From assembly GCF_054482525.1 (NCBI RefSeq), contig NZ_CM137006.1: a stretch of 64,000 nt of DNA; one strand, written 5' to 3'. Positions 9,562 to 43,295 of this stretch are shown piece after piece. The position numbers and the translations under genes are program-made. Each line of letters starts with the position of its first letter. Position 1 is the stretch's first letter. The notes under the pieces were generated by a model. The model was not told the origin of the DNA and made no database searches. It was given only the letters and a program-made list of their open reading frames with translations.

Positions 9562-11130
9562 TTAGCGTGCCGGCTGAGTAGTCGTGGAAGACTGCTCAAA
9601 GTGATAGCGACCGGTTTTCAGGCTGCTTGGGCCGAGGCGTGCAAACTTGAACATTAAGAACAATTCTGCCACCAGGAACAGGGTATACAGGCCGCAAATC
9701 AGCACCATTGAGAAGATGAGATCGCCTGCGGTCAGTGACGAGTTCGCCACAGCTGTCGGCAGCACTTCACCGATAGCCCACGGTTGGCGGCCATATTCAG
9801 CCACGAACCAGCCCGCTTCTACAGCAATCCACGGCAGCGGAATACCGTACAGCGCGGCGCGCAGCAGCCATTTTTTCTCGCCAATGCGGTTGCGGATGAC
9901 ACTCCAGAAAGAGAGCGCGATGATTGCCAGCAGCAGGAAGCCACACGCCACCATGATACGGAACGCGAAGTACAGCGGCGCTACACGCGGAATGGAGTCT
10001 TTGGTTGCCTGTTGAATCTGCGCTTCAGTCGCATCAGCCACGTTTGGCGTATAGCGTTTCAGCAGCAGACCGTAACCGAGGTCTTTCTTCATGCTATTGA
10101 ACTGGTCACGAACCGCCTGGTCGGTAGAACCAGAACGCAGTTGCTCGAGCAGAGAGTACGCCTTCATCCCGTTACGAATGCGTTCTTCATGCTGCACCAT
10201 CAGTTCTTTCAGGCCGATAACTGGAGTATCCACGGAACGCGTTGCAATGATGCCCAGCGCGTAAGGGATCTGGATCGCAAATTTGTTCGTCTCCTCTTCC
10301 TGATCAGGAATGCCGAACAGAGTAAAGGCAGCAGGCGCAGGTTGCGTTTCCCACTCGGCTTCAATAGCAGCCAGTTTGGTTTTCTGCACGTCGCCCATTT
10401 CGTAACCAGATTCATCACCCAGAACAATAACAGACAGAACGGCAGCCATACCGAAGCTGGCAGCGATAGCAAAGGAGCGTTTAGCGAAGGCGAAGTCACG
10501 ACCTTTCAGCATATACCATGCGCTGATACCGAGGATGAACATCGCGCCAGTCACATAACCAGACGCTACAGTGTGAACGAATTTCACCTGAGCAACCGGG
10601 TTAAGCACCAGCTCGGAGAAGCTCACCATCTCCATACGCATAGTTTCAAAGTTGAAATCGGACGCGATTGGGTTTTGCATCCAGCCGTTCGCAACCAGAA
10701 TCCACAGTGCGGACAGGTTTGAACCGAGCGCCACCAGCCAGGTGACACACATATGCTGAACTTTACCCAGACGATCCCAACCGAAGAAGAACAGACCTAC
10801 AAAGGTGGATTCGAGGAAGAAGGCCATCAGACCTTCGATTGCCAGCGGCGCACCGAAGATATCCCCTACATAGTGGGAATAGTAAGACCAGTTAGTCCCG
10901 AACTGGAACTCCATGGTCAGACCGGTTGCCACACCCAGAGCGAAGTTGATACCAAACAACTTGCCCCAGAACTTGGTCATATCTTTATAAATCTGTTTGC
11001 CGGAAAGGACGTAGACCGTTTCCATAATGGCCAGCAGGAACGCCATACCGAGCGTCAGTGGCACAAAAAGGAAGTGGTACATCGCGGTCAAGGCAAACTG
11101 TAAGCGCGACAGTTCGACTATATCTAACAT
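9562..11130 (-). CDS. cydA: Cytochrome bd-I ubiquinol oxidase subunit I
   Basis: 522 aa from [28 protein letters not shown]...; start set at the second Met of the ORF. Confidence 0.93.
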
Positions 11131-32452: not shown

Positions 32453-32651
32453 CGTGATCCCTTAAGCATCTTTTTTATGCTTACTTCGCCGTGGATACTA
32501 CCACGCACAGTGATGTGCGTGCCGGGGTTCACTTGCGAGCTCTTGTCTACGTAGTGGCTCGCGAAGGAACCTTTAAAAACTGTCTTAGTGTCAGGGGCAG
32601 TTTTTAAAGATTTCCTGAATAGCCGGGGATTTCCCCGGCATCAACATTTAA

Positions 32652-36588: not shown

Positions 36589-37872
36589 ATGGCTGATACA
36601 AAAGCAAAACTCACCCTCAACGGGGATACAGCTGTTGAACTGGATGTGCTGAAAGGCACGCTGGGTCAAGATGTTATTGATATCCGTACTCTCGGTTCAA
36701 AAGGTGTATTCACCTTTGACCCAGGCTTCACTTCAACCGCATCCTGCGAATCTAAAATTACTTTTATTGATGGTGATGAAGGTATTTTGCTGCACCGCGG
36801 TTTCCCGATCGATCAGCTGGCGACCGATTCTAACTACCTGGAAGTTTGTTACATCCTGCTGAATGGTGAAAAACCGACTCAGGAACAGTATGACGAATTT
36901 AAAACTACGGTGACCCGTCATACCATGATCCACGAGCAGATTACCCGTCTGTTCCATGCTTTCCGTCGCGACTCGCATCCAATGGCAGTCATGTGTGGTA
37001 TTACCGGCGCGCTGGCGGCGTTCTATCACGACTCGCTGGATGTTAACAATCCTCGTCATCGTGAAATTGCCGCGTTCCGCCTGCTGTCGAAAATGCCGAC
37101 CATGGCCGCGATGTGTTACAAGTATTCCATTGGTCAGCCATTTGTTTACCCGCGCAACGATCTCTCCTATGCCGGTAACTTCCTGAATATGATGTTCTCC
37201 ACGCCGTGCGAACCGTATGAAGTTAATCCGATTCTGGAACGTGCTATGGACCGTATTTTGATCCTGCACGCTGACCATGAACAGAACGCCTCTACCTCCA
37301 CCGTGCGTACCGCTGGCTCTTCGGGGGCGAACCCGTTTGCCTGTATCGCAGCAGGTATTGCTTCACTGTGGGGACCTGCGCACGGTGGTGCTAACGAAGC
37401 GGCGCTGAAAATGCTGGAAGAAATCAGCTCCGTTAAACACATTCCGGAATTTGTTCGTCGTGCGAAAGATAAAAATGATTCTTTCCGCCTGATGGGCTTC
37501 GGGCACCGCGTGTACAAAAATTACGACCCGCGCGCCACCGTAATGCGTGAAACCTGCCATGAAGTGCTGAAAGAGCTGGGTACCAAAGATGACCTGCTGG
37601 AAGTGGCTATGGAGCTGGAAAACATCGCGCTGAACGACCCGTACTTTATCGAGAAGAAACTCTACCCGAACGTCGATTTCTACTCTGGTATCATCCTGAA
37701 AGCGATGGGTATTCCGTCTTCTATGTTCACCGTGATCTTCGCTATGGCACGTACCGTTGGCTGGATCGCCCACTGGAGCGAAATGCACAGTGACGGTATG
37801 AAGATTGCCCGTCCGCGTCAACTGTATACAGGATATGAAAAACGCGACTTTAAAAGCGATATCAAGCGTTAA
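36589..37872 (+). CDS. gltA: Citrate synthase
   Basis: 427 aa [47 protein letters not shown]...; divergent from sdhC. Confidence 0.95.
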
Positions 37873-37900
37873 TGGTTGATTGCTAAGCCGTTTACTTTCC

Positions 37901-37932
37901 GGACCCGCCTTTAATAGAGCGGGTTCTTTTTT
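37901..37932 (+). terminator. Rho-independent terminator of gltA
   Basis: GGACCCGC...GCGGGTTC hairpin followed by T6. Confidence 0.6.
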
Positions 37933-38261
37933 ATATGGCTGAACATAATAAATTGTAAAAATTAAACCAGATGCAAATACCCATTAATAAGGTGAAAAAA
38001 TGTGACAAGTCACATACTGAGCAGAATGATAAGTTTATTTTTATACTTTCCTGCCGGTAGCATTGTTAACCCAATGAAAATTATGCATATCCATCCCACC
38101 CCATCTTTCATCTCATTAAACAATAAATTTATACACTCAATTATTCCATTCTTTATATAACAAGATTTTTAATATTGTTAAATAAAACCAAATACATTCA
38201 ACTGTCAGTTAATATATTCTTGCCTCGCAACACTCTATCTCATTATTTAAAGGACTCAGCT

Positions 38262-38828
38262 ATGTTTAAAGGACAAAAAACATTGGCCGCACTGGCCATA
38301 TCTCTGCTATTCACAGCACCTGTTTATGCGGCTGATGAAGGATCCGGTGAAATTCACTTTAAAGGTGAAGTTATTGAAGCACCGTGTGAAATACATCAGG
38401 ATGATATTGATAAAGAGGTTGAACTCGGTCAGGTGACCACCAGCCATATTAATCAGTCGCATCACAGCGATGCCGTTGCTGTCGACCTGCGCTTAGTCAA
38501 CTGCGATCTGGAAAACTCCAACAACGGTTCCGGCGGCAAGATTTCTAAAGTTGCAGTCACCTTTGAAAGCTCAGCGAAAACCACCGGCGCAGATCCGATT
38601 CTCAACAACACCAGCACGGGTGAAGCCACCGGCGTCGGCGTGCGTTTAATGAATAAAGATCAAAGCAATATCGTTTTAGGCACCGCTACTCCAGATATCG
38701 ACCTGGCTCCGACCTCCAGCGAACAAACGTTAAATTTCTTTGCGTGGATGGAACAAATTGATCAGGCTACACCTGTAACGCCAGGCGCAGTTACGGCGAA
38801 TGCGACCTACGTGCTGGATTATAAATAA
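38262..38828 (+). CDS. ybgD: Fimbrial major subunit-like protein
   Basis: 188 aa from MFKGQKTLAALAISLLFTAPVYA (signal peptide), type 1 fimbrial fold signature. Confidence 0.85.
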   Translation: MFKGQKTLAALAISLLFTAPVYAADEGSGEIHFKGEVIEAPCEIHQDDIDKEVELGQVTTSHINQSHHSDAVAVDLRLVNCDLENSNNGSGGKISKVAVTFESSAKTTGADPILNNTSTGEATGVGVRLMNKDQSNIVLGTATPDIDLAPTSSEQTLNFFAWMEQIDQATPVTPGAVTANATYVLDYK

Positions 38829-38878
38829 GTATCACTTTGGCGGCGTCATCGCCGCCTTTCTTCAAATATTTATCAGGT

Positions 38879-41338
38879 ATGGACACCGTGAATATTTATC
38901 GACTCTCTTTTATATCCTGCCTGGTCATGGCGATGCCTTCCGCATTGGCGGTCGAATTCAATCTGAATGTTCTCGATAAATCAATGCGCGACCGCATTGA
39001 TATTTCATTATTAAAGGAAAAAGGAGTCATTGCTCCCGGTGAATATTTTGTTAGCGTTGCGGTGAATAACAACCAAATCAGTAATGGGCAAAAAATCAAC
39101 TGGCAAAAAAAGGGTGACAAAACCATTCCATGCATCAATGATTCACTGGTCGATAAATTTGGTTTAAAACCAGATATCCGTCAGTCCTTGCCACAGATAG
39201 ATCGGTGTATTGATTTCAGTTCCCGACCTGAAATGCTCTTCAATTTCGATCAAGCCAATCAGCAACTGAATATTAGTATTCCGCAAGCCTGGCTGGCGTG
39301 GCACTCAGAAAACTGGGCTCCCCCCTCTACATGGAAAGAAGGTGTTGCCGGTGTCCTGATGGATTACAACTTGTTTGCCAGCAGCTACCGCCCACAGGAC
39401 GGCAGCAGCAGCACTAATCTGAATGCCTACGGTACCGCCGGAATTAACGCCGGGGCATGGCGCTTACGCAGTGATTACCAGCTTAATAAGACCGATAGCG
39501 AAGATAACCATGACCAGTCAGGCGGAATATCGCGCACCTATCTTTTTCGTCCATTACCGCAATTAGGCTCTAAGTTAACCCTCGGCGAAACCGATTTCAG
39601 TTCCAATATTTTCGACGGCTTTTCTTATACCGGCGCGGCACTGGCAAGTGACGATCGGATGTTACCGTGGGAGCTACGCGGCTACGCCCCACAAATCAGC
39701 GGCATTGCACAAACCAACGCCACCGTCACCGTGAGTCACTCAGGGCGAGTTATTTACCAGAAAAAAGTCCCACCAGGTCCGTTTATCATTGATGACCTTA
39801 ATCAGTCCGTCCAGGGTACGTTGGATGTCAAAGTGACGGAAGAAGATGGTCGGGTGAACAATTTCCAGGTTTCGGCAGCATCGACGCCCTTCCTGACTCG
39901 CCAGGGACAGGTTCGCTATAAATTGGCCGCGGGTCAGCCACGGCCCTCCATGTCACATCAAACTGAAAATGAAACCTTTTTTAGCAATGAAGTTTCCTGG
40001 GGGATGCTGTCAAATACCTCGCTGTACGGCGGCCTGCTGATTTCGGGTGACGACTACCATTCTGCCGCAATGGGTATCGGGCAAAATATGCTCTGGCTTG
40101 GTGCATTGTCGTTTGATGTCACCTGGGCCAGTAGTCAGTTTGATACTCAGCAGGACGAGCGGGGCTTAAGTTACCGCTTTAATTACAGCAAACAAGTGGA
40201 TGCCACTAACAGCACGATTTCGCTCGCCGCTTATCGCTTTTCAGATCGTCATTTTCACAGCTACGCCAACTATCTGGATCACAAATACAACGACAACGAT
40301 GCGCAGGACGAAAAACAGACGATCAGCTTATCCGTGGGGCAACCGATTACCCCACTGAACCTCAATCTGTACGCCAACCTGCTGCATCAAACCTGGTGGA
40401 ATGCAGACGCCTCCACGACCGCCAACATCACGGCGGGTTTTAATGTTGATATTGGTAACTGGAGAGATATCTCGATCTCGACGTCATTCAATACAACCCA
40501 TTACGAAGATAAAGATCGCGACAATCAGATTTACCTGTCGATTTCGCTTCCCTTCGGTAACGGGGGGCGGGTCGGTTATGACATGCAAAACAGTAGTCAA
40601 AGCACCACGCACCGCATGTCGTGGAATGATACGTTGGATGAACGTAATAGCTGGGGCATGTCTACCGGACTGCAATCCGACCGTCCGGATAATGGAGCCC
40701 AGGTGAGCGGTAACTATCAGCACCTGAGTTCAGCGGGTGAGTGGGATATTTCTGGTACCTATGCCGCCAATGATTACAGTTCCGTCAGCAGCAGCTGGAG
40801 CGGTTCTTTCACGGCAACTCAATATGGTGCGGCGTTCCATCGTCGCAGCTCCACCAATGAACCACGTCTGATGGTCAGTACCGATGGCGTGGCAGATATT
40901 CCGGTTCAGGGCAATCTCGACTACACCAACCATTTTGGCATTGCGGTGGTGCCGTTGATTTCCAGTTATCAGCCTTCCACCGTGGCGGTGAACATGAATG
41001 ATTTACCCGACGGCGTAACAGTGGCAGATAACGTTATCAAAGAAACGTGGATTGAAGGCGCGATAGGTTACAAATCGCTGGCTTCCCGTTCCGGTAAAGA
41101 CGTTAACGTCATCATTCGCAACGCCAGCGGTCAGTTCCCTCCCCTCGGTGCGGATATCCGCCAGGATGATAGCGGCATTAGCGTGGGGATGGTTGGCGAG
41201 GAAGGACATGCCTGGTTAAGTGGAGTCGCTGAAAATCAACAATTTACCGTGGTCTGGGGTAATAGCCAGCGTTGCTCGATCCATCTTCCTGAACATATGG
41301 AAGACACCGCAAATCGCCTGATTTTACCTTGTCATTAA
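38879..41338 (+). CDS. ybgQ: Fimbrial outer-membrane usher protein
   Basis: About 819 aa from MDTVNIYRLSFISCLVMAMPSALA; PapC/FimD-like usher; start codon choice uncertain (ORF track begins at a TTG at 38837). Confidence 0.8.
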   Translation: MDTVNIYRLSFISCLVMAMPSALAVEFNLNVLDKSMRDRIDISLLKEKGVIAPGEYFVSVAVNNNQISNGQKINWQKKGDKTIPCINDSLVDKFGLKPDIRQSLPQIDRCIDFSSRPEMLFNFDQANQQLNISIPQAWLAWHSENWAPPSTWKEGVAGVLMDYNLFASSYRPQDGSSSTNLNAYGTAGINAGAWRLRSDYQLNKTDSEDNHDQSGGISRTYLFRPLPQLGSKLTLGETDFSSNIFDGFSYTGAALASDDRMLPWELRGYAPQISGIAQTNATVTVSHSGRVIYQKKVPPGPFIIDDLNQSVQGTLDVKVTEEDGRVNNFQVSAASTPFLTRQGQVRYKLAAGQPRPSMSHQTENETFFSNEVSWGMLSNTSLYGGLLISGDDYHSAAMGIGQNMLWLGALSFDVTWASSQFDTQQDERGLSYRFNYSKQVDATNSTISLAAYRFSDRHFHSYANYLDHKYNDNDAQDEKQTISLSVGQPITPLNLNLYANLLHQTWWNADASTTANITAGFNVDIGNWRDISISTSFNTTHYEDKDRDNQIYLSISLPFGNGGRVGYDMQNSSQSTTHRMSWNDTLDERNSWGMSTGLQSDRPDNGAQVSGNYQHLSSAGEWDISGTYAANDYSSVSSSWSGSFTATQYGAAFHRRSSTNEPRLMVSTDGVADIPVQGNLDYTNHFGIAVVPLISSYQPSTVAVNMNDLPDGVTVADNVIKETWIEGAIGYKSLASRSGKDVNVIIRNASGQFPPLGADIRQDDSGISVGMVGEEGHAWLSGVAENQQFTVVWGNSQRCSIHLPEHMEDTANRLILPCH

Positions 41339-41353
41339 TTAAGGAAATGAAAA

Positions 41354-42085
41354 ATGACATTTATGAAAGGACTTCCCCTTTTGTTGTTGATTGCCAGTCT
41401 GTGCAGCTACGCTGCGCTACAACCCGATCGCACTCGCATTGTGTTTAACGCTAATGATAAAGCCACCAGCCTGCGAGTGGATAATCGTAGCGATAAACTC
41501 CCCTACCTCGCTTATTCCTGGCTCGAAAATGAAAAAGGGGAGAAAAGCGACGATCTTCTGGTCGCCCTGCCACCGATACAACGTCTGGAACCGAAAGCAA
41601 CAACGCAGGTGCGGATAGTCAAGCAAGCCTCGACCGCGAAATTACCTGGCGATCGCGAAACGCTATTTTTCTACAATATGCGTGAAATTCCTCCCTCCCC
41701 AGAAAAAAACAGCGGCCATGCCGTTCTGCAGGTCGCCATCCAGAGTCGTATCAAGGTGTTCTGGAGACCGTCCGCGTTACGCAAGAAAGCAGGAGAAAAA
41801 GTCGAGCTACAGTTACAAGTCAGCCAGCAGGGCAATCAACTTAACTTAAAAAACCCGACCGGCTATTACCTGACAATCGCCTACCTCGGACGAAATGAGC
41901 AAGCTGTTCTCCCGGGCTTCAAAACCGTGATGGTTGCGCCTTTTAGTACAGTAATTACAAACACCGGAAGTTATAGCGGCAGTCAGTTTTATCTCGGTTA
42001 TATGGATGATTACGGCGCGTTACGCATGACGACGCTCAATTGCAACGGACATTGCCGTTTACAAGCAGTGGAGGCGAAGAAATGA
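41354..42085 (+). CDS. ybgP: Periplasmic fimbrial chaperone
   Basis: 243 aa with signal peptide, PapD-like chaperone. Confidence 0.85.
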
Positions 42086-43143
42086 GTACTGGCAAAGGAT
42101 TGTTGCTCGTCATCTGTCTGTTATTTCTGCCATTGAAGTCTGCGCTAGCGCTGAACTGCTATTTTGGTACTTCCGGCGGAACGGTAGAAAAATCGGAAGC
42201 GATTCAACCCTTTGCTGTGCCAGGTAATGCCAAACCCGGCGATAAGATCTGGGAATCTGACGATATTAAAATTCCCGTCTATTGTGACAACAATACCAAC
42301 GGCAACTTTGAAAGCGAACATGTCTACGCATGGGTAAACCCCTACCCGGGGGTACAGGATCGTTATTATCAACTCGGCGTGACATACAATGGTGTCGATT
42401 ACGATGCCAGTCTGGGGAAAAGCCGCATCGACACCAACCAGTGTATCGACAGTAAGAACATTAACATTTATACCCCTGAGCAGATTATCGCGATGGGCTG
42501 GCAGAACAAAATATGTTCGGGTGACCCCGCTAATATTCACATGTCGCGAACCTTTCTCGCTCGTATGCGGTTATACGTTAAGATTCGCGAAATGCCGCCG
42601 CATGATTATCAAAGTACGCTTAGCGACTACATCGTCGTGCAATTTGATGGTGCCGGTAGCGTTAACGAAGACCCTACCGCCCAAAACCTGAAATACCATA
42701 TTACTGGTCTGGAAAACATTCGTGTACTGGATTGCAGCGTCAATTTTTCTATTTCACCAGAAACACAGGTGATTGATTTTGGTAAATTTAACCTGCTGGA
42801 TATTCGCCGCCACACAATGTCGAAAACATTCAGTATTAAGACGACAAAATCACAAAATGACCAGTGCACCGACGGATTTAAGGTCAGCTCTTCGTTTTAT
42901 ACCGAAGAAACATTGATTGAAGAGGATAAAGCACTGCTGATTGGTAATGGACTGAAGCTACGTTTGCTGGATGAAAATTCTTCACCCTATACTTTCAACA
43001 AATACAGCGAATATGCTGATTTCACCAGCGATATGTTGATCTACGAAAAAACCTATACGGCTGAACTTTCGTCCATTCCCGGCACCCCCATCGAAGCGGG
43101 TCCCTTCGATACAGTGGTGCTTTTTAAGATTAACTATAACTAA
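42082..43143 (+). CDS. ybgO: Fimbrial adhesin-like protein
   Basis: 353 aa from [23 protein letters not shown] with GGAGG RBS; terminal gene of the chaperone-usher operon. Confidence 0.8.
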
Positions 43144-43295
43144 TTTATCATGATGCCCTTTGCAGTCAGTAAAGGGCCTCTCTTTCAGAAAATTGCTGAT
43201 TTTCCCCTTTTCCTTGATTGCTGTTATTTTTTCCTGGCCCGGCTTTCTTTATGCTGTATCGATACACCAAAGAAAAAATAATGAGGGAGCGAAGG

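Follow-up and report, generated by a model that had tools for sequence, protein, structure and literature searches.

The hairpin between the major-subunit gene ybgD and the usher gene ybgQ is probably a leaky Rho-independent terminator that would also act as the protective 3′ end of a short ybgD transcript. We favor this reading on balance from the predicted anatomy of the element, its position, its selective conservation among ybgD alleles and the parallel architecture of sister operons. Full-text literature searches found no earlier description of a ybgD-ybgQ hairpin.

The ybg operon and the hairpin at its first junction

The window, that is the whole 64-kb stretch of DNA analyzed, is identical in sequence to E. 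coli PCN033, and the RefSeq annotation of that strain was used for the genes. Combined with Pfam searches, the annotation bore out the original prediction of an intact operon with the order subunit-usher-chaperone-adhesin, here ybgD-ybgQ-ybgP-ybgO. The features of this region are as follows:

37901..37932, + strand: gltA terminator, an 8-bp stem followed by TTTTTT (37927-37932), read from the sequence
38262..38828, + strand: ybgD, major fimbrial subunit, 188 aa (RefSeq; Pfam Fimbrial PF00419, E 3.5e-30)
38879..41338, + strand: ybgQ, outer-membrane usher, 819 aa from the ATG (RefSeq; Pfam PapC_N, Usher and PapC_C over the full length)
41354..42085, + strand: ybgP, periplasmic chaperone (RefSeq; Pfam PapD_N and PapD_C)
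42082..43143, + strand: ybgO, putative two-domain tip adhesin, 353 aa (RefSeq)
43155..43177, + strand: operon-end stem-loop GCCCTTTGC-AGTCA-GTAAAGGGC, 11 nt past the ybgO stop, putative end of read-through transcripts

The C-terminal pilin-like domain of YbgO was matched by Pfam Fimbrial at 218-353 with 24.0 bits, just below the 25.6-bit cut-off. The K-12 annotation starts ybgQ at a GTG equivalent to 38888, versus the ATG at 38879 in PCN033, and ybgQ is frequently a pseudogene in other strains. Upstream of the operon, the gltA terminator is predicted to isolate ybgD from transcription of gltA, and the very A+T-rich promoter region of ybgD lies 3′ of it.

The inverted repeat GGCGGCG-TCAT-CGCCGCC was found at the ybgD-ybgQ junction exactly as first written, but it occupies 38839-38856 and not 38840-38857, the earlier coordinates being off by one base. 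Its placement "immediately after" the ybgD stop was a fair description: the stem begins 10 nt past the TAA (38826-38828) and ends 22 nt upstream of the ybgQ ATG (38879). The 3′ tail of the hairpin reads TTTCTTCAAA. It is located at the right edge of the ybgD cassette, which is hypervariable. The elements of the junction are:

38821..38827, + strand: tentative outer A-U helix, 5′ strand ATAAATA, which overlaps the final codons of ybgD (weak evidence)
38829..38838, + strand: stop-to-stem spacer of 10 nt, variable in sequence and fixed in length in all haplotypes
38839..38845, + strand: 5′ arm GGCGGCG, first 6 bases invariant in 60/60 junctions
38846..38849, + strand: loop TCAT; alleles TCAT, CTAT, GATT and GCCC, the loop being widened to 6 nt in those with a mismatched closing pair
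38850..38856, + strand: 3′ arm CGCCGCC, last 6 bases invariant
38857..38863, + strand: interrupted short U-tract TTTCTTC, first TTT invariant and the remainder variable; expected release site if the element terminates
38867..38873, + strand: tentative outer A-U helix, 3′ strand TATTTAT, 5 nt upstream of the ybgQ ATG

Folded alone, the hairpin has a ΔG of -15.4 kcal/mol, compared with a mean of -5.0 ± 2.0 for shuffled sequences (z = -5.25), none of the 200 shuffles being as stable. It also ranks first among the terminator-like sites scanned in the 36-45 kb interval of the window.

Terminator anatomy and proposed read-through into ybgQ

In its predicted anatomy the element matches a Rho-independent terminator whose U-tract is short and interrupted. 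The stem of seven G-C pairs and the loop of 4 nt fall within the ranges of intrinsic terminators (approximately 5-14 bp, G/C-rich, and 3-8 nt, respectively). Five of the eight nucleotides 3′ of the stem are T, as many as the scan called for, with just three of them consecutive, which makes the tract weak. This T-rich tail is present on the sense strand alone. A terminator serving the opposite strand was ruled out, as the complement of the stem is followed there by AAAGTGATAC, with no T-run, and there is no convergent gene. Canonical Rho-independent terminators such as that of gltA, 900 nt upstream, share the G/C-rich stem, the short loop, the immediate 3′ T-run and the position just past a stop codon; the gltA run is TTTTTT, whereas that of ybgD is interrupted after three bases (TTTCTTC), which would fit a partial stop better than a full one.

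In the mechanism that we propose, transcription would start upstream of ybgD, past the gltA terminator, and eleven nucleotides beyond the ybgD stop codon RNA polymerase would make the 7-bp all-G/C hairpin followed by UUUCUUC. Because the U-run is short and interrupted, we infer that a fraction of the polymerases would release at this point, giving a monocistronic ybgD mRNA whose 3′ hairpin would block 3′-to-5′ exonucleases. The other polymerases would continue through ybgQ, ybgP and ybgO as far as the stem-loop that follows ybgO, where they would stop. The net effect would be an excess of mRNA for the subunit, thousands of copies of which are needed, over mRNA for the usher, chaperone and adhesin. 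If the hairpin works as proposed, one promoter would supply thousands of YbgD per usher, as in pap and fim, and anyone expressing the cryptic Ybg fimbriae for study would have to retain the hairpin or delete it on purpose. A further idea, which we consider improbable, is that the fixed 10-nt gap between stop and stem would allow the terminating ribosome to tune folding of the hairpin and so couple read-through into the usher gene to translation of ybgD.

Leakiness of the terminator is logically required, since the 22 nt before the ybgQ start leave no room for a promoter and YbgD is not assembled without YbgQ and YbgP. It is very unlikely that the hairpin is an efficient terminator, with ybgD effectively monocistronic and ybgQPO either unexpressed or reliant on a promoter inside ybgD. 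The stem is strong enough for such a role, and the many strains with a ybgQ pseudogene would fit it. However, polymerases from a promoter inside ybgD would still need to cross the hairpin, the U-run is weak compared with that of the gltA terminator, and all four genes are intact in PCN033. Moreover, transcript levels of the four genes shift in concert in STEC transcriptomes (log2 values of 1.61 for ybgD, 2.34 for ybgQ, 1.98 for ybgP and 2.03 for ybgO; PMC6033998).

Conservation of the stem among ybgD alleles

Comparison of 60 ybgD-ybgQ junctions, which make up 10 spacer haplotypes, revealed that the 12 core stem columns (GGCGGC/GCCGCC) and the TTT that follows are invariant in all 60, with 26 of the 50 spacer columns being invariant overall (P = 8e-5). 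The 10-nt stop-to-stem spacer has zero invariant columns and zero indels in the haplotype alignment. The closing pair of the stem is G-C, U-A (two haplotypes, a compensatory change) or mismatched, the last being found in the commonest haplotype. The latter is of the K-12 type. In the comparison with the K-12 junction, suggested in the original prediction as a check, the six-pair core is kept and the closing pair is an A.C mismatch. PCN033 has G-C at this position, strain 110 has U-A together with an AA/UU extension of the stem, and the L023 hairpin has a tail of five U. All hairpin variants have a ΔG between -13.1 and -15.6, and the stem core is kept in lineages whose ybgD and ybgQ are 71-76% and 77% identical to the window, respectively.

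Judging from these alignments, the stem is under purifying selection across highly divergent alleles. The case for selection comes from stem positions that stay constant while their flanks vary; covariation does not carry it, because only one pair varies: six of the seven pairs never change, there is one compensatory change, and 76 out of 500 shuffles scored as high as the real alignment. A chance origin of the hairpin is untenable given the conservation data. The number of perfect all-G/C 7-bp hairpins with loops of 3-8 nt is also above chance, with three in the 64-kb window against 0.59 ± 0.93 in dinucleotide shuffles.

A conserved palindrome need not act as RNA. Conserved arms around a free 6-nt center (GGCGGC-N6-GCCGCC) would also fit the DNA site of a dimeric protein; the palindrome might otherwise be a recombination boundary, or a functionless sequence kept by hitch-hiking. 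The location at the edge of the ybgD cassette and the weak statistical covariation also speak for readings of this kind. We regard all of these as improbable. The T-rich tail is confined to the sense strand, the closing pair swaps from G-C to U-A, and comparable structures occupy the equivalent position of eight other operons although their sequences are unrelated (see below), which argues for structure over sequence. Hitch-hiking in particular is hard to square with 12 invariant G/C bases lying between variable flanks and a variable loop.

Several other readings of the conserved element were rejected. The ybgQ frame is open back to a TTG at 38837 in both PCN033 and K-12, so that the hairpin could encode an N-terminal extension of the usher; this coding explanation was discarded, since in-frame stops interrupt the hairpin region in the E69 and strain-110 haplotypes and L023 uses another frame. 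A repeated palindrome of the REP/BIME type was ruled out, as GGCGGC-N6-GCCGCC has a single exact match within the window and a 1-kb query finds one place per genome among 4188 E. coli genomes (median 1, maximum 2). Similarly, a known RNA family was ruled out, no Rfam match overlapping 38820-38880 even at E ≤ 10. A YbgQ scan of genome contigs for orthologues outside Escherichia returned just three loci, all Escherichia-like; one of them is labeled as a Collinsella MAG, yet is 98% identical to E. coli.

The A-U pairings around the hairpin raise the question of whether the structure mainly tunes translation of ybgQ, with either the hairpin plus the outer A-U helix or a second A-U pairing that spans the ybgQ start (38864-38870 with 38891-38897) limiting access of the ribosome to that start. 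Both pairings were detected as inverted repeats, 98.6% of alignment cells in the outer helix are paired, with one compensatory change (A-U to C-G), and the ATATT upstream of the ybgQ start is invariant across the junctions. Such a role is nevertheless highly improbable: the A-U helices add just about -3.7 kcal/mol, one strand of each is coding and hence conserved anyway, and the strong G/C hairpin stands clear of the ribosome-binding region.

Post-subunit hairpins in sister operons and related systems

A strong stem-loop is present in the spacer after the major-subunit gene in 9/10 chaperone-usher operons of K-12. In each operon no other spacer is as long as this one, and the post-subunit spacers also fold more stably than the rest (Mann-Whitney P = 0.0018). 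Six of the nine sister hairpins have 3-4 U directly 3′ of the stem, and those of fimA, ygiL and elfA have no adjacent U-run. A hairpin after the major subunit is an ordinary, long-known design of fimbrial operons, and the ybgD case belongs to this known kind: it has the placement of the pap and fim type, between a major-subunit gene and the assembly genes, and a stable structure that appears to be kept by selection.

One example from the literature is the terminator/stabilizer stem-loop 3′ of papA (Baga et al. 1988; Bricker and Belasco 1999, both summarized in PMC5927463). Like that of ybgD, it lies directly 3′ of the major-subunit gene, ahead of the assembly genes. The pap element, which has experimental support where the ybgD hairpin is predicted, makes pilin mRNA more stable and abundant than the other pap mRNA. 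The two systems also differ in that papB precedes the pilin gene, that an RNase E cut and a 5′ stem-loop contribute in pap, and that papH, not the usher gene, comes after papA; the two hairpins have no sequence similarity. A further comparison is the paralogous Yqi operon of K-12, which has the same unusual subunit-usher-chaperone-adhesin order and a ygiL-yqiG spacer of about 59 nt. Its G/C-rich hairpin of 8 bp, UGGCCGGG-UUCG-CCCGGCCA, begins 7 nt past the stop codon; it differs from that of ybgD in sequence, has no U-run after the stem, is followed by a second A/U hairpin and is likewise uncharacterized. The terminator anatomy, position, purifying selection, K-12 sister operons and the papA and fimA literature together lend in silico support to the intra-operon attenuator that the original prediction had proposed.

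Given the poor U-tract (UUUC...), termination by the ybgD hairpin could be negligible. The hairpin would then be a decay barrier alone: read-through would be near-constant, the RNA would be cut (for example, by RNase E) or left ragged downstream, and exonucleases would trim it to the hairpin, so that the ybgD segment outlives the ybgQPO segment. This explanation is possible but rather unlikely. Differential decay is the mechanism documented for papBA and cfaAB in PMC5927463, which also cites the intercistronic stabilizer hairpins of malE-malF (REP) and of the puf operon (a decay terminator). As in these, the intra-operon stem-loop of ybgD would shield the cistron 5′ of it against 3′ exonucleases and make expression within the operon unequal, although it is single copy per genome and not a repeated element like REP. 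The lack of a U-run in the fimA, ygiL and elfA hairpins suggests that the shared function is stabilization rather than termination, and at fimA a defined RNA 3′ end is found at such a hairpin. However, in ybgD the TTT next to the stem is invariant while later bases vary, and a pure exonuclease barrier would not require TTT; the U directly after the stem in most of the sister hairpins argues in the same direction. Partial termination combined with 3′-end protection remains our preferred reading. The stem-loops of the K-12 operons, with or without a U-run, form a natural series in which the shares of termination and decay protection in setting the ratio of subunit to machinery could be compared, and which also suits asking whether operons besides fim release small RNAs from the post-subunit position.

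The ybg operon is silent in K-12. In the Term-seq supplement to PMC7815308, an RNA 3′ end is mapped at 4543708 for the fimA hairpin, but neither ybgD nor ybgQ is listed and the other cryptic fimbrial operons are without sense 3′ ends. The same fimA-fimI spacer yields the small RNA FimR2, whose ends are made by RNase E cutting of the fim transcript (PMC9723502) and which the RefSeq K-12 annotation places at 4543674-4543708, between fimA and fimI. Besides its role in cis, the ybgD 3′ UTR might also be released as a FimR2-like small regulatory RNA of about 25-35 nt, a suggestion that we consider improbable. The ybgD hairpin has the same genomic position as fimR2, and an RN|WUU-like site (AC|UUU, 38834-38838) lies in the A/U-rich single-stranded RNA 5′ of the stem. 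RNase E motifs are, however, common in A/U-rich RNA, there is no Rfam match, and none of the positions in the single-stranded 5′ part is constant among alleles, unlike in a seed region. A FimR2-type RNA would moreover have GGA motifs, one of them in the hairpin loop; none occurs in 38829-38863, in or near the ybgD hairpin, so that the CsrA-binding feature of FimR2 is absent. It is similarly doubtful that the post-subunit hairpins of cryptic chaperone-usher operons in general, that of ybgD included, are precursors of FimR2-like 3′ UTR-derived small RNAs. If they were, activation of a single fimbrial operon would be relayed by a trans-acting RNA to other genes for surface structures or motility.

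Both the fim and ybgD elements are G/C hairpins in the spacer that follows the gene for the major subunit; that of fim has its defined RNA 3′ end inside the operon. The fim hairpin is the weaker one, with 5 bp, CsrA-binding GGA motifs, no adjacent U-run and a distance of 29 nt from the stop codon, whereas that of ybgD has seven G-C pairs, no GGA, a TTT tail and a spacing of 10 nt.

Setting of the hairpin in the ybg operon

Positions 38100-39100 match the E. coli PCN033 chromosome at 100% identity; its RefSeq annotation, combined with Pfam roles, gives the gene content listed below. The subunit-usher-chaperone-adhesin order and the intact state of the operon, both part of the original prediction, are correct for this strain, with the C-terminal pilin-like domain of YbgO scoring 24.0 bits, slightly below the Pfam cut-off of 25.6.

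Features of the region (window positions; genes from the RefSeq annotation of PCN033)
sdhCDAB, minus strand
36589-37872, gltA
37901-37926, stem of the canonical gltA terminator, then TTTTTT at 37927-37932
38262-38828, ybgD, fimbrial protein gene (Pfam Fimbrial family), stop codon TAA at 38826-38828
38839-38845, 5' arm of the hairpin, GGCGGCG
38846-38849, loop of the hairpin, TCAT
38850-38856, 3' arm of the hairpin, CGCCGCC
38879-41338, ybgQ, usher (Pfam PapC_N, Usher and PapC_C, full length)
41354-42085, ybgP, chaperone (Pfam, both PapD domains)
42082-43143, ybgO, 353 aa
43155-43177, second stem-loop, 11 nt past the ybgO stop
Beyond ybgO, abrB and nei

As gltA has its own terminator, followed by a very A+T-rich stretch up to the ybgD start, ybgD opens a separate transcription unit, and the stem-loop after ybgO marks the operon end. 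In STEC transcriptomes, ybgD, ybgQ, ybgP and ybgO shift together (log2 1.61, 2.34, 1.98 and 2.03, respectively; PMC6033998), which is consistent with co-transcription.

The inverted repeat between ybgD and ybgQ is present, but sits one base further left than predicted (38839-38856, not 38840-38857). The stem begins 10 nt past the ybgD stop, and the hairpin is followed on its 3' side by TTTCTTCAAA. Its RNA fold reaches -15.4 kcal/mol, compared with -5.0 +/- 2.0 for shuffles (z -5.25), and it is the top-ranked terminator-like site within 36-45 kb. Perfect all-G/C 7-bp hairpins number three in the window against 0.59 expected, and GGCGGC-N6-GCCGCC has one exact match there. Another of the three is GCGGCCC-AGG-GGGCCGC at 2920-2936. 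The perfect all-G/C hairpin GCCGGGG-ATTT-CCCCGGC at 32622-32639, which is without a U-run, is found on the minus strand ~13 nt past the end of sdhB, in the sdhB-sucA spacer, and may be another intra-operon stem-loop.

Several readings were rejected. The ybgQ frame is open upstream to TTG 38837 in PCN033 and K-12; coding sequence is excluded by stops that fall within the hairpin region of the E69 and strain-110 haplotypes and by a frameshift in metagenome contig L023. The locus is single-copy per genome and the pattern unique within the window, which excludes a repeated element. No Rfam model matched the hairpin even at E <= 10, eliminating a known RNA family. Finally, an opposite-strand terminator was discarded, as only the sense strand has the T-run and there is no convergent gene.

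Conservation of the ybgD-ybgQ junction

Junctions were taken from complete genomes, species-representative genomes and a metagenome scan, the last anchored on the conserved first ybgQ codons and therefore blind to the hairpin itself. Among the 60 junctions there were 10 different spacer haplotypes and, within these, six variants of the hairpin.

Hairpin variants and where they were found
GGCGGCG-TCAT-CGCCGCC, window
GGCGGCG-CTAT-CGCCGCC, GN4554, O104:H4 and several metagenome contigs
GGCGGCA-TCAT-CGCCGCC, K-12 (A.C mismatch; in effect 6 bp and a 6-nt loop)
GGCGGCG-ACGT-AGCCGCC, E69 type (G.A mismatch)
GGCGGCT-GATT-AGCCGCC, strain 110 and Escherichia sp. E1V33
GGCGGCT-GCCC-AGCCGCC, L023

In every haplotype the six outer pairs are unchanged, as is the TTT directly 3' of the stem, while variation is free in the loop, in the 10 bases leading up to the stem and past the TTT; each of the 12 core columns is invariant, against only 26 of the spacer's 50 (hypergeometric P = 8e-5). 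The K-12 junction, which had been proposed as the comparison to make, keeps the six-pair core and the TTT, with A.C at the closing pair. This pair, next to the loop, is U-A instead of G-C in two haplotypes and a mismatched intermediate in three, and all variants fold at -13.1 to -15.6 kcal/mol. No haplotype has an indel between the ybgD stop and the stem. The core is intact where ybgD is 71-76% and ybgQ 77% identical to the window, including a lineage in which gltA is only 89.6% identical. Formal tests of covariation are weak, as variation is limited to one pair and shuffles match the score in 76 of 500 trials; the case for conservation of the putative element is built on invariance between neighbours that vary. 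It is very improbable that this pattern comes from a DNA-level site or from hitch-hiking.

L023 (an ERZ773186 contig) comes from a divergent Escherichia lineage, with gltA at ~9585-10178, ybgD at 689-1192 and a gap of ~8.4 kb between them rather than 0.4 kb; its hairpin is closed by U-A and followed by a longer tail, TTTTT. A 3.2-kb contig labelled Collinsella sp. MAG (JAIJJM010000367.1) also carries ybgD-ybgQ, with a YbgQ match at 98% protein identity to that of the window and exactly the K-12 spacer, and is probably a mis-binned E. coli contig.

Around the hairpin and the start of ybgQ are two weak A-U pairings that exclude each other (38821-38827/38867-38873 and 38864-38870/38891-38897). 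The first, an outer helix ATAAATA/TATTTAT, has 98.6% of its cells paired and shows one compensatory change from A-U to C-G. Tuning of ybgQ translation by these helices is highly unlikely. The 10-nt direct repeat AATATTTATC occurs at 38865-38874 and 38891-38900, either side of the ybgQ start codon. This start differs by annotation: ATG 38879 in PCN033 (PGAP, 819 aa) versus, three codons downstream, GTG 38888 in curated K-12 (815 aa), an AGG lying 1 nt ahead of the ATG and 10 nt ahead of the GTG.

Sister operons and the probable role of the hairpin

Every intergenic spacer of ten K-12 chaperone-usher operons (loci L002 and L010-L018) was folded. In each operon, the longest spacer is the one that follows the major-subunit gene (34-219 nt, all others being <= 66 nt), and it contains a strong stem-loop in nine of the ten (fim, yad, sfm, elf, yfc, ygiL-yqi, yra, ecp and ybg), the exception being the yehD-yehC spacer of yeh. 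Per nucleotide, these spacers have more stable folds than the remaining ones of >= 20 nt (Mann-Whitney P = 0.0018, with spacer length as a confounder). The ygiL-yqiG-yqiH-yqiI operon shares the unusual gene order of ybg, and its hairpin starts 7 nt past the stop, compared with 10 nt for ybgD. The ybgD hairpin is an ordinary, hitherto undescribed member of a well-known class of intra-operon stem-loops, and sequence analysis, within its limits, supports the attenuator-like role first proposed for it.

In the best-supported reading, which we consider somewhat better than an even bet, the hairpin is a partial Rho-independent terminator: it would stop some transcription after ybgD and then shield the 3' end of the resulting short ybgD transcript. 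The invariance of the TTT argues for a genuine termination component, and the short interrupted U-run, set against the TTTTTT of gltA, for low efficiency. Three to four U also follow the stem directly at yadN, sfmA, yfcV, yraH and ecpA (6/9 with ybgD). The remaining three (fimA, elfA and ygiL) have no such U-run, which speaks for the main rival, a pure decay barrier without termination; we hold this to be doubtful. The 22 nt from the hairpin to the ybgQ ATG are too short for a promoter, and one within ybgD would still need to cross the hairpin. As subunit assembly needs usher and chaperone, a functional operon needs read-through, and the hairpin must then be leaky, if it terminates at all; a full stop of transcription has very little likelihood. 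The ybg operon is silent in K-12.

A primary 3' end of fimA was placed by K-12 Term-seq at 4543708, within the fimA-fimI spacer (PMC7815308 supplement). The stretch with this end is annotated in RefSeq as the small RNA fimR2, which RNase E cuts from the fim transcript and which binds CsrA via GGA motifs (PMC9723502). A FimR2-like small RNA from the ybgD hairpin region is improbable: the region has no GGA motifs, and its single-stranded part lacks conservation.

Variability of ybgD and lesions in other strains

ybgD is among the most variable genes of the region, a 1-kb query giving E. coli identity bands from 60-80% to >99%. Between the gltA terminator and the stop codon of ybgD, identity to K-12 is 58-88%, compared with ~100% at the ybgQ start. 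Positions 37895-38830, ybgD and the A+T-rich DNA upstream of it, make up a hypervariable cassette bounded on the right by the ybgD stop and the hairpin; gltA, its left neighbour, is ~98% identical between PCN033 and K-12. The cassette looks as if recombination had replaced the major-subunit allele.

Ybg fimbriae have been described as a core-associated, frequently disrupted E. coli type (PMC3559732). ybgQ is often broken in other strains, by an IS1 insertion in O104:H4 (L004, FWSEC0009, 1768-2989) and by internal stops in strain 110 and ETEC4068 (L005 and L006). In metagenome contig L035, an IS1-like end replaces the 3' end of ybgD and abuts the spacer 9 nt before the hairpin. The hairpin is retained in all four.
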